Source: Thermodesulfobacteriota bacterium
GTDB lineage: Bacteria > Desulfobacterota > Desulfobacteria > Desulfobacterales > C00003060
NCBI GenBank assembly: GCA_034189385.1
Contig: JAXHVD010000005.1
Span: 32,001-96,000, forward strand
Length of the DNA stretch: 64,000 bases
Reading direction: 5' to 3'
Shown here in pieces: positions 1,432 to 60,720 of this stretch. The notes under the pieces are model-generated. The model searched no databases. It worked only from the letters and a program-made list of their open reading frames with translations, and was not told where the DNA came from. How positions within the stretch are numbered: the first letter of the stretch is position 1; the number at the start of each line of letters is the position of its first letter. The position numbers were made by a program, and so were the translations under genes.

Positions 1432-1569
1432 TTAGGTATACATGAGGGAATAGAGCCTGGTTCTTTCCCAGAGAGATGTAATGTCCCAAGCTTGTCTTTT
1501 AGGAAGTATCCTGACCAGGCGGCAGTAGACATGCAGGGCATTGAGGTTATGGTGTAAGAAGTTTTTCAT
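1432..1569 (-). CDS. Small hypothetical protein, 45 aa (MKNFLHHNLNALHVYCRL...)
   Basis: ATG at 1569 with a purine-rich RBS (AAAGGGGGAAAATACG-ATG) and its own sigma-54 promoter immediately upstream. Confidence 0.65.
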   Translation of the reverse strand: MKNFLHHNLNALHVYCRLVRILPKRQAWDITSLWERTRLYSLMYT

Positions 1570-1917: not shown

Positions 1918-2172
1918 TTACTCAGCGCCACCGCCCATTGCCGGCATTGCCCCGCCGGGAATGCCGTACGGGACCACAGGGTAGCAGGGATAGGGGAAAC
2001 AGGGGAAGTAAGGATAGCCCATGTAGAAGGGAAAACCGGGGTAGCAGGGATAGCCGGGGATGTACCCAGGGACATAACCCGGGCCGGGGTAACAACCACC
2101 TGCCACCTCACTCATAGCCTTGCCGTTTAGTTCCTTGTCCATTTCCAAATCCTTGATTTTGACCTTTTTCAT
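1918..2172 (-). CDS. Double-glycine-leader secreted peptide precursor with Tyr/Pro/Gly/Cys-rich core (84 aa)
   Basis: RBS AAAGGAGAAGGAAA-ATG; leader MKKVKIKDLEMDKELNGKAMSEVAGG; own sigma-54 promoter and terminator; C39 peptidase transporter nearby. Confidence 0.88.
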   Translation of the reverse strand: MKKVKIKDLEMDKELNGKAMSEVAGGCYPGPGYVPGYIPGYPCYPGFPFYMGYPYFPCFPYPCYPVVPYGIPGGAMPAMGGGAE

Positions 2173-3602: not shown

Positions 3603-5018
3603 ATGAAGGCTTCACTGGCAATCAGGTTCTCTCTATTGATGGTGACGGTCCTAAGTGCATGCTCTGTGGGGCCCCAATATGAACGCCCGAAGCTTGAGGA
3701 AAAGAAGGCTTGGGGTGAAACAGAAGCTGCCGAATTAGGGCCCTGCCGAGTCATACAGATGGATTGGTGGACGGGTTTTGGCGATCCTTATCTTAACAAA
3801 TTGGTCCAAGAGGCTATCTCAGGCAGTTTTGACTTGAAGATTCTGCTCGGACGTATCCAGGAAGCAGGTGCTACGATTAAAGGGGCTCGGGCGCAACTGA
3901 TGCCTTCTCTAGACTTGTCCACAAAGGCAGAGTTTAGTCGGGCGGAAGTGCCTGACTTCGGTGGCGGTCACACGGTGGCTGACTCTCAACAGGCCACCGG
4001 ACAGACGAGTTTGAGTTGGGAAATAGACATGTGGGGCAAGAAGAGGAGAGAGTATGCAGCAACCAAAGCTGAATATGAAGCCAGTCAAGCTGACTATCGG
4101 GCAGGATATCTAAAGCTGGTTTCGGAGCTGGCAATGGCCTATTTTCAGATCCGCCAGATTGATGAGCAGTCCCGTATGACGGACAGGTCCCATGGACAAT
4201 ACAATCAAATACTGACCATCTACCAAAACCAATACGCTGAAGGCCTTGTTCCTCAGTGGAAAGTGCTGCGGCAAGAGGCAGAAGTGAAAAGGCTGAATCA
4301 GGATTTGTTGGAACTTGAAAGGGTGCGAAAGAGGCTTGAAAACAGAATAGCCACTTTGTTGGGCCGGCCTGCAGGGGATTTGAAAATTCCCCGTGCCAAC
4401 CTGAGACAAAACCTGCGGCCCGTGAAGGTGCCTGTGGGCCTTCCCTCTGACCTTCTGTCCCGACGTCCGGACATTGTGGCAGCCGAATACCGCCTCATTA
4501 AGGCAACCCATAACGTAGGTGCGGCCGAAGCCGCCAGGCTCCCATCTTTTGGTCTGACCGGCTCTGGCAGCTTAGTGAGTGAAAGCCTCAAGGGGCTGCT
4601 CACGGGCACCTGGGCGCTGTCCATCGCACCAGCCGTGTCCATGCCGCTTTTTGATGGTGGCAGTCGCAAGGCTGACGTTGCTGCAAAACAAGCACGAGCA
4701 CAAGTAACCCAAGAGGTGTATCGCAAGACAGTAATGACAGCCTTTGAAGAGGTGGAGAACGCTTTGGTAAATCTGGAGAGTCGACAAAAGCAGCAGGCTG
4801 TCCTGAAGGAGAAGCTCGACGGGCTGAAACAGGTTCGATCTCAAACCACCGCCAAATTTGAACTTGGCTTGATATCCCAATTACAGGTTCTAGACATCGA
4901 GCGGGAGCTTTATGCAGCTGAGAAGTCGCTTCTGCAGATGCATCGTTACCTCTTGGATGATACCGTCTCTCTCTTTAAGGCCCTGGGCGGCGGCTGGGGC
5001 AAGGTCACAGTGAAGTAG
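3603..5018 (+). CDS. Outer membrane factor lipoprotein (NodT/OprM/TolC family)
   Basis: Lipobox LSAC-SVGP, WWTGFGDPYLNKLV, SWEIDMWGK, PSDLLSRRPDIVAAE, LFKALGGGW. Confidence 0.95.
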   Translation: MKASLAIRFSLLMVTVLSACSVGPQYERPKLEEKKAWGETEAAELGPCRVIQMDWWTGFGDPYLNKLVQEAISGSFDLKILLGRIQEAGATIKGARAQLMPSLDLSTKAEFSRAEVPDFGGGHTVADSQQATGQTSLSWEIDMWGKKRREYAATKAEYEASQADYRAGYLKLVSELAMAYFQIRQIDEQSRMTDRSHGQYNQILTIYQNQYAEGLVPQWKVLRQEAEVKRLNQDLLELERVRKRLENRIATLLGRPAGDLKIPRANLRQNLRPVKVPVGLPSDLLSRRPDIVAAEYRLIKATHNVGAAEAARLPSFGLTGSGSLVSESLKGLLTGTWALSIAPAVSMPLFDGGSRKADVAAKQARAQVTQEVYRKTVMTAFEEVENALVNLESRQKQQAVLKEKLDGLKQVRSQTTAKFELGLISQLQVLDIERELYAAEKSLLQMHRYLLDDTVSLFKALGGGWGKVTVK

Positions 5019-5056: not shown

Positions 5057-7108
5057 ATGAAAGTCATCCTGCAGGCCGAGCCAAATACGGGTATCCAAGA
5101 TATCGTCATCGAGGGCTTGCCTTTTGTGATCGGCCGCGGCGAAGGCAAGTTTTCGCAGTACGAAGAGCAATTCCCGGATCAGCTAAAGAAGCTTTCCAGG
5201 CGGCATGCCCGGATCTTCGTCGAGGGGGGCAGACTGTACATAGAGGACCTGGGCAGCACCAACGGCACTTTTTTGGGCGGACAACGGCTTCATGATCAGC
5301 CCATGCCTCTTGGAAATGGGGACGCTATAGCCTTTGGCGCTTTCTTTAAATACGTGATTTACATAGATCAACCTGAGACGAAATCGGCGGAAAGCCGGCC
5401 CGGCGGGGAAAGCACCATATACGTGTCGGACGCTTCCTCCTTCTTGGGCATGCTAGCCTCGGAGAAGAAAGCAGATCAGGGCCCTTCTTCAGGCGGCCGC
5501 CAAGAAACCTCCTCCCAATCCTCTATTCCGTGTGCGGGCACCCATTCGAAACTTAAGGACAAGAAAAGACTTTTTGCCGCCTTTATCGCTGAGTTCTGGG
5601 ACAAGCCCGGAGACGGCCGGAAACGAAAATGGTACTTGCTGGGTTTGGTCGGGGTCCTCTTGGCTGCAGGGGTTGTTTCAGTGGTCGCCCTCAGTTCGCC
5701 CGAACGGAAGTTGAAGAGACTAATGAAGCAACAGCGTTACACTGAGTGTGCTCAGGTGGCTGATGCAATACTGCGGGAGGATCCTCACGATGAACGCGTG
5801 TGTGATATCGCAACAGAGGCTCTCATAAAGGGCATTTTGCCTGACTGGATGGACAAATTGAAAAGGGCACGCTTCGCTGAGGCCCGGGAATTCCTAGCCT
5901 CAGCGGCATCACGAAACGAACACAATCGTGACGGCTTAAAAGCTATAGAGTTGTTGGTTTGGGTCACAGACCTTGAAGCGTTCTTTGCCGGAAGGAAGGG
6001 CGAAACACCTGTAACCATATACCGGGACGAGGAAAAGGTAGAGTCCTTGCTCAGTCGATGGACCAAGGACAAGAACTGCAACTGCTCTCTTCTGGACCAA
6101 ATGGCAAACCACCATCCTCCATTTGCCATTTACCAGAGACAGATACACAGCGATCTAAATGCACTGAAGACCTTGGAGACGATGCGTGTTGAGCCCACCG
6201 AAGAGCTCAAGGCGGCAATAGAAAGTCAATTGGATGCGGACCGGCCTGAGGCTTTGGTTGCAACTGTAGAAAACTTCAGACGAAAGTACCCAGAGATCGG
6301 CGGAATAGAGGCATTGCAGAAAGATGTGGCTGCCTATATTGCCCTCTGGAGAGCGGTGGAGTCAAAGGAATTGTTCAGGGTGTCCTCCTTGCTTGAAGAA
6401 GACCCTTATCAGACCAAGCCATTTGTGGACAAGGTCGCCCACATTCGTGAAAAGATCCTGCCCTCGCCCGCCGTCGTTGAGGCATACAGAAGGGCCAGAG
6501 AGGCCTGGTTGGGGGGGGCTCCCAAAAAAGCCATCGCGATCCTTCAACCCCTCGTCAACGAGAAATGGGGCGAACTGGCAGAGAGGAAACTGAAACACTA
6601 TCGTCAGGTTCTAAAGGACTTCGCTGCGGTGGAAGGGTCAAGAGACAGATTAGACTACGGTGTCCTCCTGCTCTCTTTTCATAATATCCTTATTCCAAGT
6701 GAGGACGAGGTTTTCTTGAAGTTGATAGAAAAGGATTACGAGAAGATTAGAACCGAAGAGTTGAAGAAGAGTCAGGCTTCATTCATGGAGGCGCAAGCAA
6801 AATGGGATGACTACCTAAAAGGTGGTGGGATTTCGGGGCTTCTTCGCCTTGACACAAAGGTGTCTGAGGAGTTTCGAAGAAAGGCAGGACTTCTGAGAAC
6901 GGCCTTTGAGGCTTTTTCGTCAGGTGCCAGCATATATGGTCTTCTAAACAGGGAGTTGCCCGATACGTGGAAGACCCTTGAGAAGACCATTCTTGATGAA
7001 GTCCAAATCCAACGACTACGTCTTGATGATCTCAGAAACGTATTGGACCCTGCTGTATCGTCAGAGAAGGTCAAATTGCTACCGAATCCATCAGAGAGGA
7101 AAGACTGA
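5057..7108 (+). CDS. FHA-domain membrane protein with large helical (TPR-like) C-terminal region
   Basis: FHA motifs VIGR, LSRRHA, DLGSTNGT; one hydrophobic helix (WYLLGLVGVLLAAGVVSVVAL); alternative TTG start at 5036. Confidence 0.85.
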   Translation: MKVILQAEPNTGIQDIVIEGLPFVIGRGEGKFSQYEEQFPDQLKKLSRRHARIFVEGGRLYIEDLGSTNGTFLGGQRLHDQPMPLGNGDAIAFGAFFKYVIYIDQPETKSAESRPGGESTIYVSDASSFLGMLASEKKADQGPSSGGRQETSSQSSIPCAGTHSKLKDKKRLFAAFIAEFWDKPGDGRKRKWYLLGLVGVLLAAGVVSVVALSSPERKLKRLMKQQRYTECAQVADAILREDPHDERVCDIATEALIKGILPDWMDKLKRARFAEAREFLASAASRNEHNRDGLKAIELLVWVTDLEAFFAGRKGETPVTIYRDEEKVESLLSRWTKDKNCNCSLLDQMANHHPPFAIYQRQIHSDLNALKTLETMRVEPTEELKAAIESQLDADRPEALVATVENFRRKYPEIGGIEALQKDVAAYIALWRAVESKELFRVSSLLEEDPYQTKPFVDKVAHIREKILPSPAVVEAYRRAREAWLGGAPKKAIAILQPLVNEKWGELAERKLKHYRQVLKDFAAVEGSRDRLDYGVLLLSFHNILIPSEDEVFLKLIEKDYEKIRTEELKKSQASFMEAQAKWDDYLKGGGISGLLRLDTKVSEEFRRKAGLLRTAFEAFSSGASIYGLLNRELPDTWKTLEKTILDEVQIQRLRLDDLRNVLDPAVSSEKVKLLPNPSERKD

Positions 7109-8475
7109 TGTCCCAAGAAAAACACCCAGAGGTTTTCGTGGACGCCGTGGAAGAGCACAGTGCGGAAGCCCTTGAAGTGCTCATGGAAAGGTCCTCTTTG
7201 TTAGCCCGGGGGATTATCTATCTGCTGATAGCCCTCTTAGCGTCGCTGTTTATCTGGTCTTTTTACGGCAAGGCAGATGTGATCATTAAGGCTAAAGGGC
7301 AATTGGAGCCGGCGTCTGAGGAAAGACGGGTCTATTCACCCACAAACGGTGAATTGATCGACATCTATGTGGCAGAGGGCATGCCCATATCCAAGAATGA
7401 CCTCCTGGCTCGCATCAAGGCGCCAGAAGCCATCAAGGCTGCGGCAGGAGCAGTGGAGGCAAAGATGAAACTTCAGGAAGCTGAGCGGCAAAAAGAGGTC
7501 TTTCCAGAGAAGAAGAAGATAATGGAAGAAGAGCTTGCCACCATAGCCAAACACATTGAGCAGAAAGAGAAGGAGTACAGTCAACTTAAGACAGAAGGAT
7601 TGCGGAACCTTTCGGAGAGCCAAAGACATAAACTAGAGGCAACGAGAACCAAGCTGGAAGAAGCAAGAAGCGAAAGAGATCTTGCGAAACGGACGGCGGG
7701 TACATACAAGCGCCTCTATGAGACGCCAGGCCATGGCGGCGTCTCCAGACAAGAAACGGAAAAGGCAGAAAGCACATACCTTAAGGCAAATGCCACGTAT
7801 GAGCGTTTGTTGACGGAGCTACAGAACCTGGAACTTGAGTTCAGCAAACAACATGCGGAAACGGGCAACAAGATTGACAAGACATACATTGAGCTACTGG
7901 GTATGCGTGTCAAACATGCAAACAAGAGGCAGGAAATCGCAAACGCGGAAAGCCGGATTGACGTCCAGTATCGCACGGCGCGGGCGAAGTGGGAGGCCGC
8001 TTCCCTGGTGAGTTTTGAGGACCTTGATCAAGAAACGCTAGTGATCCGTTCCCCTGTATCCGGGAAGATAACCCGGGTCTCCTTCAAGCAACAAGGAGAA
8101 AAGGTGGAAGCAACAAAAGCCCTCGTTTCCATCGCCCCGGCAGATGCCAGGGATATTCTGCGTGTTTCTATCTTGGACAAGGACCGTGGCTTCCTCAAGG
8201 TAGGCCAACCGGCAAAACTGAAGTTTGCTGCCTTTCCTTTTCAGCGCTATGGCTTCATACGGGGCAAACTGGAGTATATATCTCCCTCTGCAGAGCTCTC
8301 AAAGGACGGACAGCCGCTATACAATGGCCGGGTCAGTTTGGAACGTGACTATTTCATAGTCAACGGTGAGGAGATAAAACTGAGGTATGGCATGACTGCA
8401 GATGCGGAGATCATAGTTCAAAAGCGCAGGTTGATAGATCTGGCCTTGGATCCGGTGAGAAGACTCAAAGGCTAG
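7108..8475 (+). CDS. HlyD-family type I secretion membrane fusion protein
   Basis: N-terminal TM helix, lipoyl-like halves, long coiled coil, KLKFAAFPFQRYG, LRYGMTADAEI. Confidence 0.95.
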   Translation: MSQEKHPEVFVDAVEEHSAEALEVLMERSSLLARGIIYLLIALLASLFIWSFYGKADVIIKAKGQLEPASEERRVYSPTNGELIDIYVAEGMPISKNDLLARIKAPEAIKAAAGAVEAKMKLQEAERQKEVFPEKKKIMEEELATIAKHIEQKEKEYSQLKTEGLRNLSESQRHKLEATRTKLEEARSERDLAKRTAGTYKRLYETPGHGGVSRQETEKAESTYLKANATYERLLTELQNLELEFSKQHAETGNKIDKTYIELLGMRVKHANKRQEIANAESRIDVQYRTARAKWEAASLVSFEDLDQETLVIRSPVSGKITRVSFKQQGEKVEATKALVSIAPADARDILRVSILDKDRGFLKVGQPAKLKFAAFPFQRYGFIRGKLEYISPSAELSKDGQPLYNGRVSLERDYFIVNGEEIKLRYGMTADAEIIVQKRRLIDLALDPVRRLKG

Positions 8476-8664: not shown

Positions 8665-9417
8665 ATGAGCACAGCGATCAAGATTAACGACGAGGTGGTT
8701 TCTGCAGAGCAATTTATCAATATCCTGAAAATGTCAAACGAGTTTCCTTTGCTGGCCGAGAAAGTTATCCGCGACAAGATAACGGTACAGGAGGCCAAAA
8801 AGAAAGGCATCAGTGTGTCCACCGAGGAGGTCCAGCAGGAAGCGGACGATTTCAGACGCGTTGCGGCCCTTCATCGGGCAAAGGATACGCAGGAATGGAT
8901 GGATCAGAGAGGGCTGACGCTGGATGAGTTTGAGATTTTTGTAACGGAGAGAATCTACAAGAAGAAGATGGTTGAAACCATCACGAGCGAGCAGTCCATT
9001 GAAGAGTATTTCAAGCTGAACTCGCCCAAGTTCGACAGTGCCGATATCAGGCACATCGTGGTGGACAGTGAGGCCAAGGCAAAAGAACTGATGTCTCTGC
9101 TGAGTGAAGACCCAGAGGGTTTTGGCGAGTTGGCCAAGGAGCACTCGCTTGACAATGAGACCAGAAAGACGGGAGGACAGATCGGAGGCTTGCGTCGGGG
9201 GGTGCTGCCCGATGAGGTGAGTGCCAAGGTCTTCAATGCATCTGCAGGAGATGTCGTCGGGCCCTTGGAGTTGGGCGATGGGTATTTCTACGAGATTATC
9301 CAGGTTACAGCCGTCAATCCTGCCAGCCTGGACGATTCCACCAAGGAAGAGATAGGTGAGTTACTTTACAACGACTGGCTGGAGGCACGTCTGCAAGAGC
9401 ACAGTGTTACGGTATAG
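8665..9417 (+). CDS. Parvulin (PpiC/SurA-like) peptidyl-prolyl isomerase without signal peptide
   Basis: RBS AAGGAGG; RHIVV...FGELAKEHSLD...TGGQIG...GDVVGPL rotamase motifs after a SurA-like helical region. Confidence 0.9.
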   Translation: MSTAIKINDEVVSAEQFINILKMSNEFPLLAEKVIRDKITVQEAKKKGISVSTEEVQQEADDFRRVAALHRAKDTQEWMDQRGLTLDEFEIFVTERIYKKKMVETITSEQSIEEYFKLNSPKFDSADIRHIVVDSEAKAKELMSLLSEDPEGFGELAKEHSLDNETRKTGGQIGGLRRGVLPDEVSAKVFNASAGDVVGPLELGDGYFYEIIQVTAVNPASLDDSTKEEIGELLYNDWLEARLQEHSVTV

Positions 9418-9775: not shown

Positions 9776-12700
9776 TTGACAGAGTCATCCATAGTAGACT
9801 TCCTTGCTAGCGTTGAGTTCTTCTCTCCTTTTATATATCGAGAACTGGAGCAATTGGCCGGATATGCCGAGTCGTTGCACTTCGAGTTTGGGGACACCAT
9901 ATGCACCTCTGGCGACACGGCCCAAGGCCTCTTCGTCATCAAGGCGGGGCGGGTGAGACTCTTTACCGAAGACAGGGGCAAAGAGAGGAGCATAGGGGTT
10001 CGCGAACCTGGGGACACCTTTGGCGAGGTCTCGGTTTTGGAAGAGCCAACGCTCGACTATTCGGCCCGCGCCTCTAGCAAGGTGGAGATCCTTTTCTTGC
10101 CTCGCCAGCCGGTCATGGATTTGTTGGCGAAAAACGAGGCAGCAAAGGGTTTTATCGCACGATATGTGGCCTTGAAGGTGAGCGGTGCTGTGGTGACCCA
10201 GCTTTTCAACCTTCGCTCCAAGGTGGACCGCGGAGAGATCGAAGAGATTATCAAGGGCATTGGCATTAAGCGCGTGAAGGCAGGAGAGAAGATCCTTGTC
10301 CAAGAGGGCGCTGAAGATCGACGGCTGTACATCGTGCGAGAGGGCAAAGTAAGTATTGTAAAGGAGGAAGAGGGTTCGGAGTATTCTTTAATGAGTCTGG
10401 GACCAGGGGAAGTGTTCGGAGAAAAGGCCTGCCTCCTTTATTCGACGCAGCCGGCTACGGCCGTTGCAGACACGGACAGTGTCCTGATGGCCGTGCCACA
10501 AGAGACCATCCACTTCATTCTGGAGCGTAATCCTGGCCTGCGGGAGGTGTTGGAGGAACGCATCCATTTCGCCGAGAAGGAATTGGAGCGGAGAAGAAAA
10601 GTTGCCGAGCGCAGGAAAAAACGTCTTCTCTTTGACATCAAGTCCAAGCCCAAAATGGGGGAGCGCATTATCAAGCGGTTTCCCCTAGTAGAGCAGGCCG
10701 AGGAAATGGATTGCGGTGCGGCCTGTCTTGCCATGATCTGCAAGTACTATGACATCCCTGTGACCCTGGGAAAACTGAGGGAGATGGCCAATGTGACCAT
10801 TGAAGGTGCTACCATGGAAAGCCTGGCACGTGTGGGTGAATCCTTGGGCTTTGCGACAAAGGGCGTCCGATGCACCTACAAATCCATGCTCAGTTTTGAG
10901 CTTCCCTTTGTAGCACACTGGGAAGGATATCACTACATTGTGGTGTACGGCATTTCCAAGTCCCATGTTTGGGCTGCTGACCCGGGGGTGGGGTTTAGGA
11001 AGATGTCCGTGTCGGAGTTTGAACAGGGGTGGACGGGCAATAACCTGTTGTTTTCCCCCACCGGGGCCCTCGCTCAGATCGCCGTTGAGCAGTCCCCCTG
11101 GCTTCGTTTTGTCGGCTATCTCAGTCCCTTTAAGAAGATCCTTCGGGACCTCATTTTTGCGTCCCTTATTGTCCAGTTGCTGGGCCTGGCCCCTCCTGTG
11201 ATCATACAGAACATCCTGGACAGGGTCGTGGTTCACCAGAACTATCACCTCCTCCATGTCATGATCGTGGGTCTGGCAATCACGATGATATTTAGCCAGG
11301 TCACGGGGTATCTCAGCGCTTACCTGTCAAATTTCATGATCCGCAAGATGGATTTCAACATGATGTCCCACTTCTATAAACATGTGCTTTCTCTGCCGAC
11401 GAGCTTTTTTGCCAAGCGGAAGGTGGGCGACATCATGGCCCGGTTTCAAGAAAATGACACCATCAGGCGGTTCATGACAGAGACCAGTATCAGGACCCTT
11501 ATAAGCACGCTGATGGTGTTTACCTATTTCATTGTCATGTTCATGTACAATGTAAAACTGACCCTTTTGCTACTCGCCTTTTTGCCGCCCATCATCCTCC
11601 TTACCCTCTTGGCCACACCCAAATACAAGGACTACGCCCGGCGCAGTTTCTATGCCGAAGCTGATGCCCAATCCCTTCTCGTAGAAACATTGGGCGGGGC
11701 AGAGACAGTGAAAGGGACAGGCATCGAGCGACCAATGCGCCTAAAATGGGAGAAAAAGTATGTCAAGACCCTGGACCTGCGTTATCGTTGCGAAATGTTC
11801 ACCAGCCTGGTGGGGACTCTGGGCCAAACGTTAAAAGCGGCCACGACGCTTACGCTATTGTGGGTGGGGTCCAGGATGGTTCTGGCCCAGGAGCTTACCA
11901 TTGGCCAATTGATGGCTTTTAATGCCCTTATCGGCAGCGTGATGACACCCCTCATGGGCCTCGTGGGGGTTTGGGATGAGCTTCAAGAAACGCTCATTTC
12001 CATGGAGCGGCTGGGCGACGTGCTGGAGCTAGAGTCTGAGCAGAAGCCAGAAGAGGTCCCCGCCAAAGTGGTGCTTCCTGACCTGAAGGGAGACATACGC
12101 TTCGAGAATGTCTATTTTCGGTATGGTGGCAAGGAAACCCCTTATGTGCTGGAAAACATCAACATGGACATTCAGGCCGATACGACAGTGGCCATTGTTG
12201 GGCACAGCGGTTCAGGTAAAACCACACTGGCCAAAATGCTGGTGGGTTTCTATCGGCCCAGTGAAGGGAAAATATTCGTTGATGGTTATGATATTGGCAT
12301 GCTCGATGTAGAGTACTACCGTGCTCAAATTGGCTACGTCATGCAGAGTAATCTCCTCTTTTCGGGAACGGTCTCTGAAAACATTGCCGTGGGTGAGCAG
12401 AATCCGGACCCGAGACGCATTGCCGAGGCGGCCAGACTGGCTGATGCCCATGGGTTTATTGGCAACTTGCCTTTGGGTTACGAACAGGTCGTTGGTGAAA
12501 GGGGAATAGGCTTGTCCGGTGGGCAGATTCAGCGCATTTGTATTGCCCGTGCCCTTTACCGTGATTCAAGATTGTTGATTTTTGATGAAGCCACATCTGC
12601 CTTGGACAGCGAATCTGAAAGTCATATCCAGATGAATATGCGAAAGATCCTCAAGGGCAGGACTGCCATTATCATCGCCCACAGACTGAGCACCGTCATG

Positions 12701-12835
12701 CATGCTGACAGGATACTGGTCCTCTATGATGGGGCTATTGTGGAGGAAGGAAACCATCAAGAGCTGTTAGAGAGAAAGGGCATGTACTTTCATCTTGTCC
12801 AGAAACAGATATCTTCGGGAGAGATTAAGTCATGA
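9776..12835 (+). CDS. Peptidase-containing ABC transporter: 2x cNMP-binding, C39 peptidase, ABC membrane and ATPase domains
   Basis: Two cNMP-like domains (PGDTFGEVS, PGEVFGEKA); C39 catalytic residues QAEEMDCGAAC, HYIVV, ADP; Walker A GHSGSGKTT, LSGGQ, DEATSALD. Confidence 0.95.
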   Translation: MTESSIVDFLASVEFFSPFIYRELEQLAGYAESLHFEFGDTICTSGDTAQGLFVIKAGRVRLFTEDRGKERSIGVREPGDTFGEVSVLEEPTLDYSARASSKVEILFLPRQPVMDLLAKNEAAKGFIARYVALKVSGAVVTQLFNLRSKVDRGEIEEIIKGIGIKRVKAGEKILVQEGAEDRRLYIVREGKVSIVKEEEGSEYSLMSLGPGEVFGEKACLLYSTQPATAVADTDSVLMAVPQETIHFILERNPGLREVLEERIHFAEKELERRRKVAERRKKRLLFDIKSKPKMGERIIKRFPLVEQAEEMDCGAACLAMICKYYDIPVTLGKLREMANVTIEGATMESLARVGESLGFATKGVRCTYKSMLSFELPFVAHWEGYHYIVVYGISKSHVWAADPGVGFRKMSVSEFEQGWTGNNLLFSPTGALAQIAVEQSPWLRFVGYLSPFKKILRDLIFASLIVQLLGLAPPVIIQNILDRVVVHQNYHLLHVMIVGLAITMIFSQVTGYLSAYLSNFMIRKMDFNMMSHFYKHVLSLPTSFFAKRKVGDIMARFQENDTIRRFMTETSIRTLISTLMVFTYFIVMFMYNVKLTLLLLAFLPPIILLTLLATPKYKDYARRSFYAEADAQSLLVETLGGAETVKGTGIERPMRLKWEKKYVKTLDLRYRCEMFTSLVGTLGQTLKAATTLTLLWVGSRMVLAQELTIGQLMAFNALIGSVMTPLMGLVGVWDELQETLISMERLGDVLELESEQKPEEVPAKVVLPDLKGDIRFENVYFRYGGKETPYVLENINMDIQADTTVAIVGHSGSGKTTLAKMLVGFYRPSEGKIFVDGYDIGMLDVEYYRAQIGYVMQSNLLFSGTVSENIAVGEQNPDPRRIAEAARLADAHGFIGNLPLGYEQVVGERGIGLSGGQIQRICIARALYRDSRLLIFDEATSALDSESESHIQMNMRKILKGRTAIIIAHRLSTVMHADRILVLYDGAIVEEGNHQELLERKGMYFHLVQKQISSGEIKS

Positions 12836-14100
12836 AAACGGGCTCTGTGGTATCCTTTGCTCGGCTCTTAGAGCGTATTGAGATTCTCCGTTCGGGCCTC
12901 CGCTGGGCCCCCCAGCTTGACCGTACGGGGGTCCAGAGGATCTTAAGGCAGGTGAACAAGTTACGCGAGGACGTCCTACTGCTTTCTGGGGTGGAAAGAT
13001 ACAAAAAGCGTATGCGTGAGAAGGCCCCGCCGAAGCCCAAGGCTGCTAAGAAGAGACTTCAGGCGCTCATGGACCGCAACTTTGTCTTTGAAGGGGTTTT
13101 TGGCGAAAACCCAAAGCTGCTGGAAGCCTTGGAAACAGTGGAAAGAGCTGCACGGACAGAGTTGCCCATCTTGATCGAAGGCGAGAGCGGCACAGGCAAA
13201 GAATTACTTGCCAAGCTCATCCACGCTGGAAGTGACCGGTCGGAGAAGACCTTTGTCTCCGTTAACTGTGGTGCCATCACCCCCAGTTTGCTGGAATCTG
13301 ATCTGTTCGGCCACGTCAAAGGGGCTTTCACGGGCTCTGTAAAGGACCGCAAAGGCAAGTTTGAGACCGCCAAAGACGGCATCATTTTTCTGGATGAGAT
13401 TGGTGAGCTTTCGGCGGAAAGCCAGGTCAAGCTCTTACGGGTGCTGGAAAGTGGCGAGATCCAGAGAGTCGGCTCAGATGAGGTCATTCGGGTAAACACC
13501 CGCGTCCTTGCAGCCACAAACCGCAACTTGTACCAGATGACGGCAGACGGGCAGTTCCGAGAGGACTTGTACTACCGTTTGAGCGTCATTTCCGTCACGT
13601 TACCCCCTCTTCGCGAGCGTACCGATGAGATCCCCCTGCTTATAGACTACTTCTGTGCCGAGGCATCGGAGAAGTTGAATCGTCCTGCTGTGAGGCTCTC
13701 TCCGCGACTCAGAAGATTTCTGCAAAAACACCCTTTTCCAGGAAACATCCGGGAGCTGCGAAACATCATCTACCGTGTAGCCTGTCTGGCCGATGAAGTG
13801 GCGGACCTAAGAGATCTGCCGGAGACCATACGCCCTTCGTCAGTGGGGCCCCAAGACGCAGTTGAAGGGCGGGCCCCAAGCCGATTTACTACCCTGGCCG
13901 AGGCCAGGAAGGCGGCTACCGACGCAGCGGAAAAAGAGTTTCTGGAAGAACACCTGACACAGACCCATGGAAACGTGACGCAGTTGGCCAAACACCTGGA
14001 GATGAATCGTTCCTACCTTCAGACGCTACTAAAGAGCCATGGGCTGCGGGCGAAAGATTTCAAAGGCAAGGCAACGTCTACAAAGAACTCTGAAAGATGA
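12832..14100 (+). CDS. Sigma-54-dependent enhancer-binding activator (AAA+ and Fis-type HTH)
   Basis: GESGTGKE, SDLFGHVKGAFTGS, FLDEIGE, FREDLYYRL, FPGNIREL, C-terminal HTH GNVTQLAKHLEMNRSYL. Confidence 0.95.
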   Translation: MKTGSVVSFARLLERIEILRSGLRWAPQLDRTGVQRILRQVNKLREDVLLLSGVERYKKRMREKAPPKPKAAKKRLQALMDRNFVFEGVFGENPKLLEALETVERAARTELPILIEGESGTGKELLAKLIHAGSDRSEKTFVSVNCGAITPSLLESDLFGHVKGAFTGSVKDRKGKFETAKDGIIFLDEIGELSAESQVKLLRVLESGEIQRVGSDEVIRVNTRVLAATNRNLYQMTADGQFREDLYYRLSVISVTLPPLRERTDEIPLLIDYFCAEASEKLNRPAVRLSPRLRRFLQKHPFPGNIRELRNIIYRVACLADEVADLRDLPETIRPSSVGPQDAVEGRAPSRFTTLAEARKAATDAAEKEFLEEHLTQTHGNVTQLAKHLEMNRSYLQTLLKSHGLRAKDFKGKATSTKNSER

Positions 14101-14122
14101 AGGGGCCCACAGGCCCCTTTTT
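14100..14122. terminator. Terminator hairpin between convergent genes
   Basis: AAGGGGCC-CACA-GGCCCCTT-TTT between the activator stop and the precursor stop. Confidence 0.75.
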
Positions 14123-14136
14123 GCTCTTTGTGACAG

Positions 14137-14364
14137 CTAAGCGCCCCAGCCGCCCCATGGCATGCCCCAGCCGCCCCATGGGTTTCCCCACCAGCCGGTA
14201 CCCCAGGAGGTGGAGCTGCTGCTTCTGCCGCCGCCGCCCCAGGGGGTCCACCACCAGCTCGAGCTGGAGCGCTGACTCCACCACCAACCGCCTGTCAAGC
14301 TCTTCAACGCCTCTTTGTCGAGCTCCATGTTCTTTTCCAGGTCCTTAACTTCAATGTTTGCCAT
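14137..14364 (-). CDS. Double-glycine-leader secreted peptide precursor with Trp/Ser/Gly-rich core (75 aa)
   Basis: RBS AAAGGAG; leader MANIEVKDLEKNMELDKEALKSLTGG aligns without gaps to the leader at 2172 (10 of 26 identical); own sigma-54 promoter. Confidence 0.9.
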   Translation of the reverse strand: MANIEVKDLEKNMELDKEALKSLTGGWWWSQRSSSSWWWTPWGGGGRSSSSTSWGTGWWGNPWGGWGMPWGGWGA

Positions 14365-14430: not shown

Positions 14431-14447
14431 TGCACTGCTCATGCCAG
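14431..14447 (-). promoter_or_regulatory. Sigma-54 (-24/-12) promoter
   Basis: CTGGCATGAGCAGTGCA with GG-N10-GC, about 65 bp upstream of ATG 14364. Confidence 0.85.
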
Positions 14448-14557: not shown

Positions 14558-14620
14558 TGGTGTCTTTTACCCAACATAATCAACGGGGACTTGGAGGCAA
14601 GTGTTGGCTCCATCCTAACA
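14558..14620. promoter_or_regulatory. Paired upstream activator sites
   Basis: TGGTGTCTTTTACCCAACA (14558-14576, 112 bp from the -24 box) and TGTTGGCTCCATCCTAACA (14602-14620), 44 bp apart. Confidence 0.6.
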
Positions 14621-14712: not shown

Positions 14713-14764
14713 TGTTTGCAAAAAAGTAACATTTTGGTTTTCATTTGTTCTTCTAAACACAACA
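14713..14764. promoter_or_regulatory. Paired upstream activator sites for the rightward promoter
   Basis: TGTTTGCAAAAAAGTAACA (14713-14731) and TGTTCTTCTAAACACAACA (14746-14764), 33 bp apart; the proximal site is 111 bp from the -24 box at 14875. Confidence 0.65.
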
Positions 14765-14873: not shown

Positions 14874-14890
14874 TTGGCACGGTAGATGCG
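14874..14890 (+). promoter_or_regulatory. Sigma-54 (-24/-12) promoter facing the kinase operon
   Basis: TTGGCACGGTAGATGCG with GG-N10-GC. Confidence 0.82.
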
Positions 14891-15140: not shown

Positions 15141-16952
15141 GTGGCTCTAGCCAATGAAATCTGCACGTACTACTCTGTGCAGTTTACTCCTCAGATACCG
15201 CAGATAGACTGGCCTCTTATGTCCGAAGATGAAACCAAAATTAAGTCAGCTCTTGGTAAGAAGTATGAGATCAAGAGCCTGATCAACAGCGGAGGGATGG
15301 GTGCCGTCTACTTGGGCATCCATCGGGCCCTCGATAGGCCCGTGGCTATAAAGATCATCCATCAGGAGTTGAGCAAGGATGAGCAGCTCAGGAGGAGGTT
15401 CTGCCAAGAGGCCAAGTTGGCCGCAAGTCTCGATCATCCTGTCATCATTGACGTATACGATTTTGGCAGCAAAGATGATTTTGACTATATCATTATGCCC
15501 TATGTTGAGGGTAAAACGCTCCAAGACCGGCTCAAGGAAGCGGGCAAATTCGGAGTGCAGGAATGCTTAAGATTGATGATCAAACTAACAGATGCCCTTT
15601 GTTATGCACACAAGAAGAACGTGGTGCATCGGGACATCAAGCCATCAAATGTCATGATAGATAACCATGGACATCTTGTTCTCACTGATTTCGGCATCTC
15701 CAAGGACATGGGGGATCTTGGGCTTACTGTTCCCGGGAAAGTGCTCGGATCGCCGAAATACATGAGCCCTGAGCAGATTAGAGGGGAGGATGTGGACGGC
15801 AGAAGCGATCTGTACTCCTTGGGCTTGGTTTTCTACGAAATGATTACGGGTAAACATCCTTTTGAGGGCAAGGATGCCACCTCCATTTACTACGCCCAGG
15901 CCCACGAGATTCCCCCCAGGCCGGAAGAGTCTGTACTCGAAATCCCCGGTCAAGTGGGGGATATCATCATGAAGCTCCTTGAGAAGTCCCCGGAACAAAG
16001 GTACCAAGACAGTGGTCAATTGCTGAGGGATTTGGAGGGCCTTGGCCCTGGTCCTCCCAAGGAGCTAAGGATAGATGTCGATGCAACGTTGGTAGACCCC
16101 GAAACAGGACCTGATGGGAGGGGCAAGCCTTCTGCCCAGGACGCGAAGAAAGAAATCTCTCCATTAGGAAGGCCCAATGAAATGGCCGACGGTCTTGCCG
16201 AACAAGCACAGCCTTCGGCGAAAGACAGGAAGACTCCCAGATGGATGGTCCCTGCACTGGGAGCGACTCTAGTAGTTGTGGTCGGCATTGTGTGGGTCAT
16301 GCTCATGCCATCGACAAAAGACCCTGGGCCAAGCCCGACAGACAATCAGTCTCCACAAAGCCTTGAGAAAGAAAATGGGTCAAGCCTCTCTTCAATGGGT
16401 GTGGAAGTCCTCAAATCGGAAACGGAGAAGGAGTTGAGCTCTGAGCTGACTCAGGGTCTGGGGGCCAAACCCTCATTCGATTCAGTAGTAGAACGCTTGC
16501 TGGTCCTTGCTCAAGACAGAGAGGCCGTCTTTCTTCGGCTGTCAGTAGACAAGCCGAATTTTAAAATCGGCGAATCCATTTCCTACCATTTTCGATCAGA
16601 CAAGGCCTGCTATTTGGCATTGCTCAGTCTTACCACCGGCGGGGAACTCATTCAGGTTTTTCCCAACAAGTTCAACCCGGACCAATATATAGAGGCGAAA
16701 AGGGATTATGCCATTCCTGGAGAGAAGATGGATTTTGAATTGCATATTACAGGGCCGCCAGGGGAAGAAGAGCTTCTGGCCTTCGCAGCCGATGCGCCCT
16801 TTGACCTTTTCTCTGCCAGCTTTGAAGCTCAGCCCTTCTTCCAGGTGGACAAGGGTGACCAAAGGATACTGGATAGAATCATTAACAGAATACAAGAAAT
16901 GGAGAGAATCAACGTCGCACAGAGGCGTGTAAGCTATACAATAAGTGACTAA
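15141..16952 (+). CDS. Hanks-type Ser/Thr protein kinase with TM helix and C-terminal DUF4384-like domain
   Basis: GGMGAVY, VAIK, HRDIKPSN, DFG, YMSPE, SDLYSLG; TM helix near aa 370-390; C-terminal FKIGESISYHFRSDKACYL...QVFPN. Start is GTG 15141 or ATG 15219. Confidence 0.93.
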   Translation: MALANEICTYYSVQFTPQIPQIDWPLMSEDETKIKSALGKKYEIKSLINSGGMGAVYLGIHRALDRPVAIKIIHQELSKDEQLRRRFCQEAKLAASLDHPVIIDVYDFGSKDDFDYIIMPYVEGKTLQDRLKEAGKFGVQECLRLMIKLTDALCYAHKKNVVHRDIKPSNVMIDNHGHLVLTDFGISKDMGDLGLTVPGKVLGSPKYMSPEQIRGEDVDGRSDLYSLGLVFYEMITGKHPFEGKDATSIYYAQAHEIPPRPEESVLEIPGQVGDIIMKLLEKSPEQRYQDSGQLLRDLEGLGPGPPKELRIDVDATLVDPETGPDGRGKPSAQDAKKEISPLGRPNEMADGLAEQAQPSAKDRKTPRWMVPALGATLVVVVGIVWVMLMPSTKDPGPSPTDNQSPQSLEKENGSSLSSMGVEVLKSETEKELSSELTQGLGAKPSFDSVVERLLVLAQDREAVFLRLSVDKPNFKIGESISYHFRSDKACYLALLSLTTGGELIQVFPNKFNPDQYIEAKRDYAIPGEKMDFELHITGPPGEEELLAFAADAPFDLFSASFEAQPFFQVDKGDQRILDRIINRIQEMERINVAQRRVSYTISD

Positions 16953-17038
16953 AAGGAGCTCAGCTACTGATTCTTTTTGATCCCTCTGCCAGGCAGGCTC
17001 CTCCGGACCATGAGTCACAATGAGAAAGGAGTACACAC

Positions 17039-19123
17039 ATGAGACTAAAACATATACTCAGCCTGTTTTTTGTCGGCTTGTGTTTCCTCTTGTGCTTTCC
17101 GGTGGCTGTCCAATGTGGAGAAACCTCTAGGATTCTTATCCTTGTAAGAGGCGACCAGCCGCAGGTGCAATCTGTGAAAACAGAAGGCGGGCCAGAGGTA
17201 AAAATCGTTTACGGTGATGAGGAAGGGGGCGCAAAAGCTTCGGAGATGCTCATTGCGAAGCGTTTGCTGGGGGCCAACTATGATGTATTGACATCTGACG
17301 ACTTAGCTCCCTCTTTATGGCTATCAAGTGAGGATATTCTCGCGGCCAAGAAAGGGAATGTGCCAAAGGGACGAAAGGCCGCTGCCTTTTCTGACGCGAA
17401 CGTACTTTTCAGTGGTTTTATCAAGGTGGGCACGAGCGCGGAGGAAGTGCTGGATATGGAAATGAATAAAGCGGTGACCACCTTGTCTTACAAACTTGTA
17501 AGTACTGCTTCAGGAAAGGTCCTTGATCTAGATAGCAAGCAGTACCGCAGTAGCAGTAGATCTGCGAAAGAGGCTGTGCAGGCCACCTTGGAAACCATGG
17601 CCAATGAGGTCGCCCAGATGTTGGCAGAAAAGGTTCCTCTGGAGGTTTCCAAGAAAGATTCAGGATTGTTGGCAAAGTACAAGAAGAAGTTTGAAAAGAC
17701 CAAAGTGGCAAGGAAACCATCTGTCCCTCCAGAGCCGACGGCCTCAAAGGAAAAAGCGGCACCATCTCCTCAGATCATTATTATTAGCCCCCCGGTGGGA
17801 CGGGGATTTGAGGTGGTTGAGAAGAAGACCAAAATTACCATAGAGGGGCTTGCCAAAGATCCTGCCGGCATCAAACTGGTGAAGGTGAATGCTGATCCTG
17901 CCGACCTGGACACGGAGGGCTTCTTTTCTTACGAATCTACCCTGTCACCAGGAGATAACCGTTTTCTGGTGTTGGCCATGAACAAGGTTGGAAGTACGGC
18001 CACCAAGGAACTAGTCGTTAAACACAGGAAGGATGAATCTCCGCCTGAAATTGTCCTCATGAGGCCCCAGGTGACGAGGGGCTTTACAGTGGCGATGAAA
18101 CAGCCGCTGTCAAAGACCTTTGTCGAAGGCATGGTCAAAGACGACACCGGCATTCTTTATGTGAGAGTGAACGGAGGAGACGCCGCCGTTGACAAAGAAG
18201 GGTTTTTTTCTAAGGAGATTCCCGTAAAGGAGACCGATGAGAAGATCGTCATTGAGGCAGCTGACAAGGCGGGGAACCAGACGCGCAAAGAGTTTCAAAT
18301 TACCAGAACGTACGAAGGCACGAGGACCATGGCCCCTCTAGGGAGCGGGACCGTCAAACCGGTCCTCTGGGGCCTGGCCATAGGCGTTTCTCGATACGAC
18401 GGCACTACCGCGGATCTCAGATACGCCGATGACGACGCAAAGAGCCTGGCGGAGTCTCTAAAAAAACAGGAGGGTAGGCTCTTCTCTGAAGTTCATTTTG
18501 AGACTCTGGTGAATGAGGACGTGACGCGGGACAGTATTATCCAGAGCATGTCAAGGCACTTGGGCAAGGCCGCTCCGGACGATGTTGTTTTCATATTTAT
18601 TGCAGGTCACGGGGTGAAGCATCGCCAGTCCGGCTCATACTACTTTGTTCCGTACGACGCTGATTTTGATTCCATCCTTACAAAGGGACTCAGAATGTCC
18701 GATTTTGATGAAGCCGTTAGCATCCTGTCGAGGAACGTGAACAAGGTCATCCTGGCCATGGATACTTGTCATTCGGGGGCGATGAGACTGGGTGTGAGGG
18801 CTGAAGGGAGCGGGGAAAATCTGGCTGAAGCCCTGAGAGAGGCCAGCGGACGCTATGTTCTCGCGGCTTCAAAAGGCGGAGAGGAATCCCTTGAAAACGA
18901 GAAGTTCAAGATAGACAAACAAGACTCAGGACACGGGGCATTTACCTACGCGCTACTGGAAGGTATGTCCGGTAAGGCGAACTACGATGGGGACAACTAC
19001 ATTTCTCTGAACGAGCTTTTTCAATATGTGGCCAAGCGGGTCCCTCGGTTAACGGATGGAAAACAGCATCCGTACTTCACCGCAGCAGGAACGGATATGC
19101 CTTTGATTGTTTTGAAGGAGTAA
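17039..19123 (+). CDS. Exported caspase-like (peptidase C14) protein with two Ig-like repeats
   Basis: Signal peptide; two beta-rich repeats (PQIIIISP.../PEIVLMRP...); LAIGVSRY, catalytic FIAGHG and DTCHSG, HGAFTYALLEG. Confidence 0.9.
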   Translation: MRLKHILSLFFVGLCFLLCFPVAVQCGETSRILILVRGDQPQVQSVKTEGGPEVKIVYGDEEGGAKASEMLIAKRLLGANYDVLTSDDLAPSLWLSSEDILAAKKGNVPKGRKAAAFSDANVLFSGFIKVGTSAEEVLDMEMNKAVTTLSYKLVSTASGKVLDLDSKQYRSSSRSAKEAVQATLETMANEVAQMLAEKVPLEVSKKDSGLLAKYKKKFEKTKVARKPSVPPEPTASKEKAAPSPQIIIISPPVGRGFEVVEKKTKITIEGLAKDPAGIKLVKVNADPADLDTEGFFSYESTLSPGDNRFLVLAMNKVGSTATKELVVKHRKDESPPEIVLMRPQVTRGFTVAMKQPLSKTFVEGMVKDDTGILYVRVNGGDAAVDKEGFFSKEIPVKETDEKIVIEAADKAGNQTRKEFQITRTYEGTRTMAPLGSGTVKPVLWGLAIGVSRYDGTTADLRYADDDAKSLAESLKKQEGRLFSEVHFETLVNEDVTRDSIIQSMSRHLGKAAPDDVVFIFIAGHGVKHRQSGSYYFVPYDADFDSILTKGLRMSDFDEAVSILSRNVNKVILAMDTCHSGAMRLGVRAEGSGENLAEALREASGRYVLAASKGGEESLENEKFKIDKQDSGHGAFTYALLEGMSGKANYDGDNYISLNELFQYVAKRVPRLTDGKQHPYFTAAGTDMPLIVLKE

Positions 19124-19153
19124 GACCGCCCAAGGGCAGGGGCGCTAAACGAG

Positions 19154-19882
19154 ATGTCAGAAAACAGGAGGTCCACGTTGAAAGGAAATTACACTTCAGT
19201 AAAAGTCCTGCAGTTAACGGCGCTTTCAATAGTCCTTGCGCTCTTGGGGTGTGCGGGAGCTCCGCCTGCCGCTGATCTGCCGCCAACACCGGAAGAAAAG
19301 ATGGACTGGTCCACACTGCCCAGTCCGCCACAGAAGAAGCAGCTTGTTGCTGTCGCGGGTTTTGAGAACAAGAGCACCTATTCTGCTGACAAACTCTGGG
19401 ATACATCCTCCCGCATCCTGGCAAGTTACCTGTTGCGGGCCGGATACTTCCGGGTAGTGGAATGGGAGAAGATGAAGCAGCTCTTTGACTGGGACACCTT
19501 GAGTACGGCCAGCCTGGTGAAAACGCCGGAAAATATGAAAAAAGCACAGCGTATATTGTTATGTGAGCAGTTTCTTTCCGGGTCGATCACGTATTTCGAC
19601 GTGCGACAACATGCAAGTGTGAGCGCTACTTCCAAGAAAAAGGTCATAGACACAACCATCCGGGTCGATCTACTCCTCCAAGATGCTCAGTCTGGGGAGT
19701 ATGTCTCTGCTGGCATGGGCGAACATACGGTGAGCCAGGTCTATTCAGGGGGGCTCTCAGGTGGCCAGACGGGAAGCTGGGATCCGCGCGCCGCAGATAA
19801 AGCGCTGGATATGGCCATTGGCAAGGCATTACTTGAATTGATTTCAAATTTTGACCGGCTTGTGGGACATGGGGCTTCGTAG
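19154..19882 (+). CDS. CsgG/HfaB-family lipoprotein
   Basis: Lipobox LLGC; VAVAGFENKS...GYFRVVE...LSGSITYF...IRVDLLLQDAQSGE pattern. Confidence 0.75.
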   Translation: MSENRRSTLKGNYTSVKVLQLTALSIVLALLGCAGAPPAADLPPTPEEKMDWSTLPSPPQKKQLVAVAGFENKSTYSADKLWDTSSRILASYLLRAGYFRVVEWEKMKQLFDWDTLSTASLVKTPENMKKAQRILLCEQFLSGSITYFDVRQHASVSATSKKKVIDTTIRVDLLLQDAQSGEYVSAGMGEHTVSQVYSGGLSGGQTGSWDPRAADKALDMAIGKALLELISNFDRLVGHGAS

Positions 19883-20314
19883 CGCCTCTTATCTGGGGCC
19901 GCAGTGTTGAATTTCCATCAAAGGAACACTGATAACCCTGCGAGCCTTCGTGGGGTGGGACATATCGATGGTCGAACAAGGAGTTTTGACGCACGGGGTT
20001 TTCGAACGCTTCCTTTCTAAAATCCTTCAACAGTTGTCAATCCTTGCTCATTATTCGATGTTCAGTCAGTCCTGGAGTGGCGTTCAGCTTCAAGTTTGCT
20101 TCCGTGTGTGAAGGGGCACGGGGGTCGTGTCTCGTCATCACGGGATACCTCTTTTTAAATCAACCGTAGTCGAAAATCAGGGGGGAGCAATGAGAAGTAA
20201 AATGGAAGGGAAGCGGGAGCCTCCAAGGCCCATTGGCACGGAGCAAGGGGTGGTAGCGTTTAGTAAAATAAAGAGTGGGCTATTTCGTTTGCCAAAGGTG
20301 AAAGGAGAGTCAGA

Positions 20315-60696: not shown

Positions 60697-60720
60697 ACAA
60701 TCTCTTCTCTCTTTCAAGAA

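Follow-up and report, generated by a model that had tools for sequence, protein, structure and literature searches.

A tryptophan-rich double-glycine peptide converging on a C39 exporter operon and its possible role as exported surface material

The window analysed here (the whole 64,000-nt stretch of DNA) carries a six-gene exporter operon and, converging on it from the minus strand, a gene for a Trp-rich peptide. The features of this region, together with one gene from another part of the genome, are as follows:

3603..5018, plus strand: outer-membrane factor (OEP, NodT/TolC-like)
5057..7108, plus strand: protein with an FHA domain, one hydrophobic membrane-type segment and a long C-terminal region of no known family
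7108..8475, plus strand: HlyD-type membrane fusion protein (MFP)
8668..9417, plus strand: SurA/PrsA-like rotamase lacking a hydrophobic N-terminus
9776..12835, plus strand: peptidase-containing ABC transporter (PCAT; 1,019 aa) with two cNMP-binding domains, C39, TMD and NBD
12832..14100, plus strand: sigma-54 activator (GAFTGS, HTH)
14099..14120, unstranded: terminator-like hairpin separating the activator gene from the convergent peptide gene
14137..14364, minus strand: precursor gene, 75 aa, leader plus Trp/Gly/Ser-rich core (translation, selection)
14140..14286, minus strand: predicted mature core, 49 aa, 14 Trp, no acidic residues (translation)
14236..14247, minus strand: T-P-W-G, predicted hairpin turn (low-confidence AlphaFold model, alignment of relatives, register test)
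14287..14364, minus strand: double-glycine leader, 26 aa, Leu at -4, -7 and -12 (leader positions compared with PMC6363468)
14372..14377, minus strand: ribosome-binding site AAGGAG of the Trp-rich precursor
15141..16952, plus strand: Ser/Thr kinase with DUF4384, first gene of a divergent kinase/caspase-like/CsgG-like operon
G000:C45:189084-189941, minus strand: gene in which Pro-Pro-Gly-Met-His-Gly is repeated six-fold; its antisense frame looks like a Trp-rich ORF

The Cys, His and Asp motifs of the C39 domain can be read in the transporter sequence, and this protein was the sole full-length match in the 90%-complete genome, as the three other matches span the ABC part only. The rotamase is a probable cytoplasmic chaperone, while the Ser/Thr kinase is a candidate partner of the FHA protein; no receiver, GAF or PAS domain was found in the sigma-54 activator. 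The divergent operon headed by the kinase (15141-21982, plus strand) also encodes a caspase-like protein, a CsgG-like lipoprotein and an unknown 555-aa protein, and has its promoter motif in common with the precursor genes described below. A kinase-DUF4384 gene and a caspase-domain gene likewise flank the operon in one Caballeronia record (L053). A PAS kinase gene is a further neighbour (10-1161).

Translation confirmed what a sequence-only reading had described, i.e., 14 Trp among 49 residues, repeated WWW, RSSSS and PWGGWG units (two copies of each) and no acidic residues; the full composition of the core is W14, G13, S10, T3, P3, R2 and one each of Q, N, M and A, with Asp, Glu, His and Cys absent. 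Trp represents 1.2% of residues in the genome (2,219 long ORFs), where no 49-aa window holds more than 7 Trp, and at this share 14 Trp in 49 residues has a binomial P of about 6e-16. Among 39,846 six-frame stop-to-stop segments (49-400 aa), the Trp-rich ORF ranked first. As the runner-up (12 Trp) proved to be the antisense shadow of the Pro-rich repeat gene, we checked whether the Trp-rich ORF could be an artefact of the same kind, i.e., no gene at all but the reverse reading of a Pro-rich frame on the plus strand. The orthologue at a syntenic metagenome locus (L024) keeps 13 of the 14 Trp; 22 of the 37 differences (ungapped 174 nt) fall at third codon positions, and dN/dS, a rough estimate from few codons, was 0.08 for the core and 0.07 for the leader. 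Read in register on the other strand, the same comparison gave 25 non-synonymous versus 2 synonymous codon changes, and L024 has a stop in that frame. Although one such shadow does occur elsewhere in the genome, the codon-position pattern, dN/dS, ribosome-binding site, promoter, terminator, paralogues and homologues make a shadow here scarcely credible, and these sequence comparisons indicate that 14137-14364 (minus strand) is a real gene under purifying selection. Orthologous cores from three pairs gave dN/dS values of 0.08-0.25. The peptide had no match in Pfam (E 0.01) or NCBIfam (E 0.001), and a PDB sequence search yielded a best E of 0.15 (1.2 for a Burkholderiaceae relative).

The Gly-Gly of the leader occupies residues 25-26 of the precursor, and the hydrophobic residues at -4, -7 and -12 are at the positions reported, in the part of the source cited, to be read by the C39 domain (PMC6363468). 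With Gly-Gly at -2/-1, these hydrophobic positions and a cognate transporter that has the C39 Cys-His-Asp motifs, the Trp-rich peptide shows the testable sequence features of a double-glycine PCAT cargo and would work like one. Eight genes in the genome carry the same leader, all eight with Gly-Gly and hydrophobic residues at -4, -7 and -12; three have Trp/Phe-Gly-Ser cores, one a Tyr/Pro/Cys core and four Pro-rich cores that start with Cys. The cognate exporter alongside, the seven paralogous precursors and their common sigma-54 regulon were all missing from the sequence-only reading. Regulatory features in the window, together with the genes at the other end of the operon, are:

1432..1569, minus strand: leaderless 45-aa ORF with the same promoter architecture
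1918..2172, minus strand: second precursor with the same leader, at the operon's other end; Tyr/Pro/Gly/Cys-rich core with four Cys and no Ser/Thr
2225-2240: sigma-54 site of the second precursor; perfect motif at 2349-2367
14431..14447, minus strand: sigma-54-type (-24/-12) site of the Trp-rich gene, with its start 83 nt upstream of the ATG; L024 has an identical site
14558..14576, unstranded: TGTTG-N9-CAACA with 1 mismatch, a candidate site for the activator, 129 nt upstream of the sigma-54 site
14602-14620, 14713-14731 and 14746-14764: further copies of TGTTG-N9-CAACA
14874..14890, plus strand: sigma-54-type site ahead of the divergent Ser/Thr kinase operon; a copy of the motif lies at -128

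A sigma-54 site starts 69-83 nt upstream of six of the eight precursor genes (0.006 expected by density), the exceptions being C2 and C4, and terminator-like hairpins follow most of the eight. The motif TGTTG-N9-CAACA, which was derived from these same precursor promoters, occurs with 0-2 mismatches at -126 to -129 in all six precursor sigma-54 sites; of the 45 other sigma-54-like sites 4 have it, and of random positions 0.5%. Outside this genome it was present at 9 of 19 sites, one of them from a near-identical strain. We infer that the adjacent sigma-54 activator binds this motif. The 45-aa ORF at 1432-1569 belongs to no Pfam or NCBIfam family; contig C62 carries three paralogues close to it (58-68% identity), and weaker ones occur on C20 and C23. 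Another ORF of about 98 aa (G000:C45:188401-188764, minus strand) has no leader, a perfect motif at -126 and a sigma-54 site, and is a probable regulon member. Paralogue C4 (L003 862-3069), which has no sigma-54 site, converges on an asparagine-synthetase-like gene, and its L023 orthologue likewise lacks the site. A second palindrome, TTTACA-N4-TGTAAA-like, lies about 121-126 nt upstream of several other sigma-54-like sites (G000 contigs C63, C3, C43 and C34) and probably marks another activator's regulon.

The six-gene operon occurs in the same order in 10 other loci, of which three are on Burkholderiaceae replicons (Caballeronia, Burkholderia stagnalis) and the other seven in genomes that belong to the same order as the present one. 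A convergent leader-bearing peptide directly follows the activator in 7 of these 10 loci, with none within the fetched stretch of the other three, and a Ser/Thr kinase lies near the operon in two of the three Burkholderiaceae loci. Among 400 same-order genomes drawn, the leader was found in 8 of 9 with a close rotamase orthologue and the orthologue in 8 of 10 with the leader, although kin among these genomes are not independent. Of 7,993 candidates scored against the FHA protein, 205 were homologues at E 1e-20; among those with names, the closest are labelled Thermodesulfobacteriota, and others are Paraburkholderia, Noviherbaspirillum, Cupriavidus and Gammaproteobacteria. A scan of a genome collection with the rotamase gave one distant locus, and 36 same-genus genomes, many of them incomplete, yielded neither a W-type peptide nor this C39. 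Two Caballeronia records (L053 4433-5416 and the L062 region) carry three different leader genes in tandem and in the same order (two Asn/Gln-rich, then basic), which suggests a multi-subunit product.

Family searches gave 4 matches and then 48, most with only the leader in common. Relatives showed only sub-cut-off leader matches (e.g., TIGR04149, Bacteriocin_IIc), and no precursor-like relative reached a curated cut-off. The 12 W-type cores, which were chosen by eye and leave out the truncated P0008 and the probably frameshifted P0014, hold 10-15 aromatic residues each, of which 3-14 are Trp with Phe or Tyr substituting; none contains Asp or Glu, Lys and Arg are absent from eight, and five have His (1-5 residues). 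By these alignments the conserved trait is an aromatic/Gly/Ser pattern, not Trp itself or charge. The proposal that such Trp density implies selection thus stands in part: the gene is under selection (dN/dS about 0.1, 13 of 14 Trp in the orthologue), but Trp density is not invariant among the 12 relatives. Likewise, the homologue search that had been proposed found the Trp pattern kept in the L024 orthologue, whereas the wider family keeps only its aromatic/Gly/Ser form.

Across 83 family cores, a set whose composition is biased by its origin in a W-type profile search (two truncated cores, cores <20 aa and L021, L028 and L042, which have a different leader subtype, were left out), W, Y, N, G, S and Q are enriched and L, K, D and E depleted; 53 lie near neutrality and 21, at net +4 or more, are cationic. 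Asn and Gln make up 15-27% of 10 of the 14 Burkholderiaceae cores and 4-11% of the other four. Elsewhere the same leader precedes a 51-aa core of net charge +18 (L026 10001-10234) and Cys/Tyr/Arg-rich 30-aa cores (L034/L044 397-774); the latter look like disulfide hairpin antimicrobial peptides. The related leader subtype of L028 and L042, which in L028 adjoins a B12 radical SAM gene and a more distantly related rotamase, is probably a modified-RiPP branch of the same leader lineage. In P0028 the end of the leader is duplicated internally, giving two GG sites.

With the central Pro as anchor, the 12 W-type cores align without gaps as aromatic, Ser run, aromatic, G-P-aromatic-G-G, aromatic, S-S-T-S, aromatic-G; at the position of T-P-W-G, most relatives have a turn of the form G-P-F/W/Y-G. 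When the cores were folded back in antiparallel register, 48 of 156 pairs placed an aromatic residue opposite Gly or Ala at the T-P-W-G register, as compared to 3-31 at nine other registers, in a test that was post hoc, anchored on the turn and applied to 12 related sequences. Pairing at this register would explain the odd runs in the Trp-rich core; alternatively, a tandem pseudo-repeat of 17-19 residues could account for the pattern. AlphaFold placed strands at residues 35-40 and 43-48 of the Trp-rich peptide with low confidence (mean pLDDT 48.6), whereas a distant relative at the same gene position was modelled as a long hairpin (pLDDT 72-89 over residues 31-80). Fold searches with the latter model returned nothing at E 0.001 (best Z 4.6), and a four-copy complex prediction scored 0.02; neither result speaks for or against the hairpin or its assembly.

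Overall, we favor, at a probability of roughly 0.4, the reading that the peptide is exported without modification, forms a hairpin and assembles with itself on the cell surface, and we rank this above the bacteriocin considered below. The neighbouring sigma-54 activator would switch on the precursor, which would be transcribed from single-gene units, and the SurA-like rotamase would maintain the aromatic-rich chains, which are prone to aggregate, in solution until export. According to the section of PMC11401910 cited, Ar-Ar and Ar-X-Ar motifs are bound by SurA; the core has five and two of these, respectively, and the operon's rotamase is a distant homologue. The chain would then be cut after Gly26 and exported unmodified, in one step, via the C39 transporter, HlyD and the outer-membrane channel; judged from the sequence features of leader and exporter, cleavage and export are very likely. 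The core would form a hairpin that turns at T-P-W-G, which we regard as somewhat better than an even bet. In it, the WWW that precedes the turn would face the GGG that follows, with the two Ser runs paired and the later W-G matched to the first WWW. The PWGG tail would serve as an aromatic anchor to the cell surface, to which the hairpins would stick while stacking into a sheet or fibre. Excerpts of two studies give precedents, i.e., the type-I-exported CdzC aggregates on the producer surface (PMC5380434) and a C39 protease is required for secretion of Fap amyloid (PMC5557850). The product may be a structural material, bound to the surface and made in bursts, and not a toxin that diffuses away, an assignment that we offer tentatively. 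This role is favored because none of the eight precursors has an immunity candidate, charge is not conserved, and the Trp-rich core contains neither a hydrophobic helix nor a glycine zipper; on the other side, the tail could be disordered, given its three Pro and many Gly, and some family cores look like antimicrobial peptides. It is a doubtful extension that a sigma-54-controlled type I system of this lineage and of Burkholderiaceae exports families of short beta-hairpin peptides, which would assemble into fibres or coats outside the cell, an amyloid-like route separate from curli and Fap. The Trp-rich peptide would then be the most aromatic subunit, a natural Trp-over-Gly zipper with stacked indoles.

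The strongest competitor, which we hold possible at somewhat long odds, is an unmodified, membrane-active bacteriocin (class II microcin- or Cdz-like), whose Trp clusters would partition into target membranes and permeabilise them, possibly while the peptide sits on the producer surface. Four of the five class II microcin parts listed in the portion of PMC9746304 cited are found here (precursor, PCAT, MFP and outer-membrane factor), the interfacial partitioning score is strong (-20 kcal/mol), there are several cargoes per genome with a patchy distribution, and cationic and Cys-hairpin cores occur elsewhere in the family; in addition, the best Atlas feature matches were automatically named bacteriocins (0.82, 0.81 and 0.76, under the 0.9 bar). 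However, a crude heuristic that looked, up to 250 nt downstream of each of the eight precursors, for a co-oriented ORF with an RBS and a hydrophobic helix found none, and the promoter of the Trp-rich gene leaves no room for an immunity gene upstream. The absence of Lys and Arg from 8 of the 12 W-type cores, the purifying selection on orthologous cores, and a Trp-rich core with one aliphatic residue, no hydrophobic segment (maximum KD19 -0.61) and no glycine zipper also argue against a bacteriocin. The two readings overlap, because CdzC both aggregates on the surface and kills (PMC5380434, in the part cited).

An unlikely alternative is that the precursor is that of a RiPP, whose Ser/Thr runs would be modified before export (YcaO heterocyclisation, kinase phosphorylation, glycosylation or amidation) by enzymes encoded elsewhere. 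Ser and Thr make up 27% of the core and stand in conserved columns; the genome has three YcaO genes; the Ser/Thr kinase gene adjoins the same intergenic region and has the same promoter motif; the rotamase shows a sub-cut-off likeness to TIGR04500; the asparagine-synthetase-like gene adjoins C4; and a related leader type accompanies the B12 radical SAM gene in L028. Yet no modifying enzyme gene was found in the operon, either here or in the 10 other loci (flanks partly scanned), there was no PqqD/RRE match (PqqD 0 matches in the 90%-complete genome), and the YcaO genes are at least 45 kb off or on another contig, none behind a sigma-54 site with the motif. A LanC search of the genome carries no weight, as the controls themselves were silent. 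Lasso peptides have an Asp or Glu acceptor within the first 7-9 core residues, and the core offers no Asp or Glu for such a ring and no Cys. Two of the YcaO genes are separated by a few kb, in which a B12 radical SAM/TPR gene lies (window 58948-60717, minus strand, and G000:C45:97693-98706), and no link of this pair to leader peptides was found. Slightly less probable again, by analogy to HetC, is an exported signalling or differentiation peptide that would feed back on the sigma-54 activator. A pheromone of 49 aa with an aggregation-prone core would be long, which counts against this idea, as do the need for several receptors for eight unrelated cores and the lack of a linked membrane receptor kinase, the neighbour at 10-1161 being a PAS kinase. 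In its favor, the activator itself lacks a sensor domain, the cluster is accompanied by kinase and FHA genes, HetC, with the same cNMP-C39-ABC layout, drives differentiation (PMC10986499, part cited), and the leader is like the HetP motif, I-x-D-L followed by GG 16-17 residues on (PMC3140520, part cited). Metal binding like that of prion octarepeats, which the sequence-only reading had raised, received no support and is very improbable; GGWG resembles part of the octarepeat and five of the 12 relatives have 1-5 His, but the binding unit is given in the passage cited as HGGGW, which needs His (PMC6721516), and both this core and its L024 orthologue lack His, Cys, Asp and Glu.

Gram-negative exporters of double-glycine peptides are mostly taken as microcin pumps, and the substrate of HetC, the best-studied cNMP-bearing exporter, is not known. 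The locus described here represents a complete testable set of one transporter, eight candidate cargoes, a regulator and a candidate binding site, and genetics should be feasible in the named soil Burkholderiaceae that carry the same operon. If the cargoes are structural, type I secretion would join the routes to functional amyloid-like material; toxic cargoes would constitute a bacteriocin class without immunity genes or charge. Should the hairpin-fibre reading be true, the stacked indoles could be examined for charge transport. As the 49-mer is short enough for synthesis, the question is cheap to settle.

Indolicidin-type cationic Trp-rich antimicrobial peptides have a conserved high positive charge, a trait not seen here, where the net charge is +2 over 49 aa and eight of the 12 W-type cores have no Lys or Arg. 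The Trp-rich peptide also lacks defining features of class II microcins, Cdz, Fap, lasso peptides and octarepeats. The FHA protein, the sigma-54 regulon and the leader family were not found in Pfam, NCBIfam or the literature searched, which largely excluded subscription journals, so that a description may exist.

The likenesses to known systems, each drawn from the parts of the sources cited, are partial. With class II microcins (PMC9746304) the locus shares a double-glycine precursor, a PCAT with catalytic triad, an MFP, a TolC-like channel and an operon without a modifying enzyme; it differs in having no immunity gene found, dispersed single-gene sigma-54 units, a nearly aliphatic-free core and no family match. 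Caulobacter CdzC and CdzD (PMC5380434) are likewise small, Gly-rich, type-I-exported proteins, and the surface aggregates of CdzC represent the behaviour proposed here, but Cdz has hydrophobic glycine zippers and the immunity protein CdzI, and the Trp-rich core has neither (GxxxGxxxG occurs 0 times in it, with the bare Gly spacing in 6 of 11 other relatives). In Pseudomonas Fap (PMC5557850) a C39 protease also serves export of self-assembling subunits; Fap, however, works through Sec, the FapF barrel and a C39 that stands alone in the periplasm, whereas here C39 is fused to the ABC transporter, and the FapC repeat motif was unmatched (2 of 10 letters in the Trp-rich core, at most 5 of 10 in any of 45 cores). 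HetC of Nostoc PCC 7120 (PMC10986499) has the same cNMP-C39-ABC architecture; it is described there without an adjacent MFP or known substrate, whereas MFP, channel and candidate substrates are identifiable here. The group I bacteriocin clusters of cyanobacteria (Wang et al. 2011, PMC3140520) share a long-type C39 ABC transporter with an N-terminal cyclic-nucleotide-binding domain, HlyD and a SurA/rotamase. Compared to that group, the present hosts are not cyanobacteria, the precursors match no named family (NHLP, Nif11, HetP), and one operon combines two cNMP domains with an FHA membrane protein, an outer-membrane factor and a sigma-54 activator.
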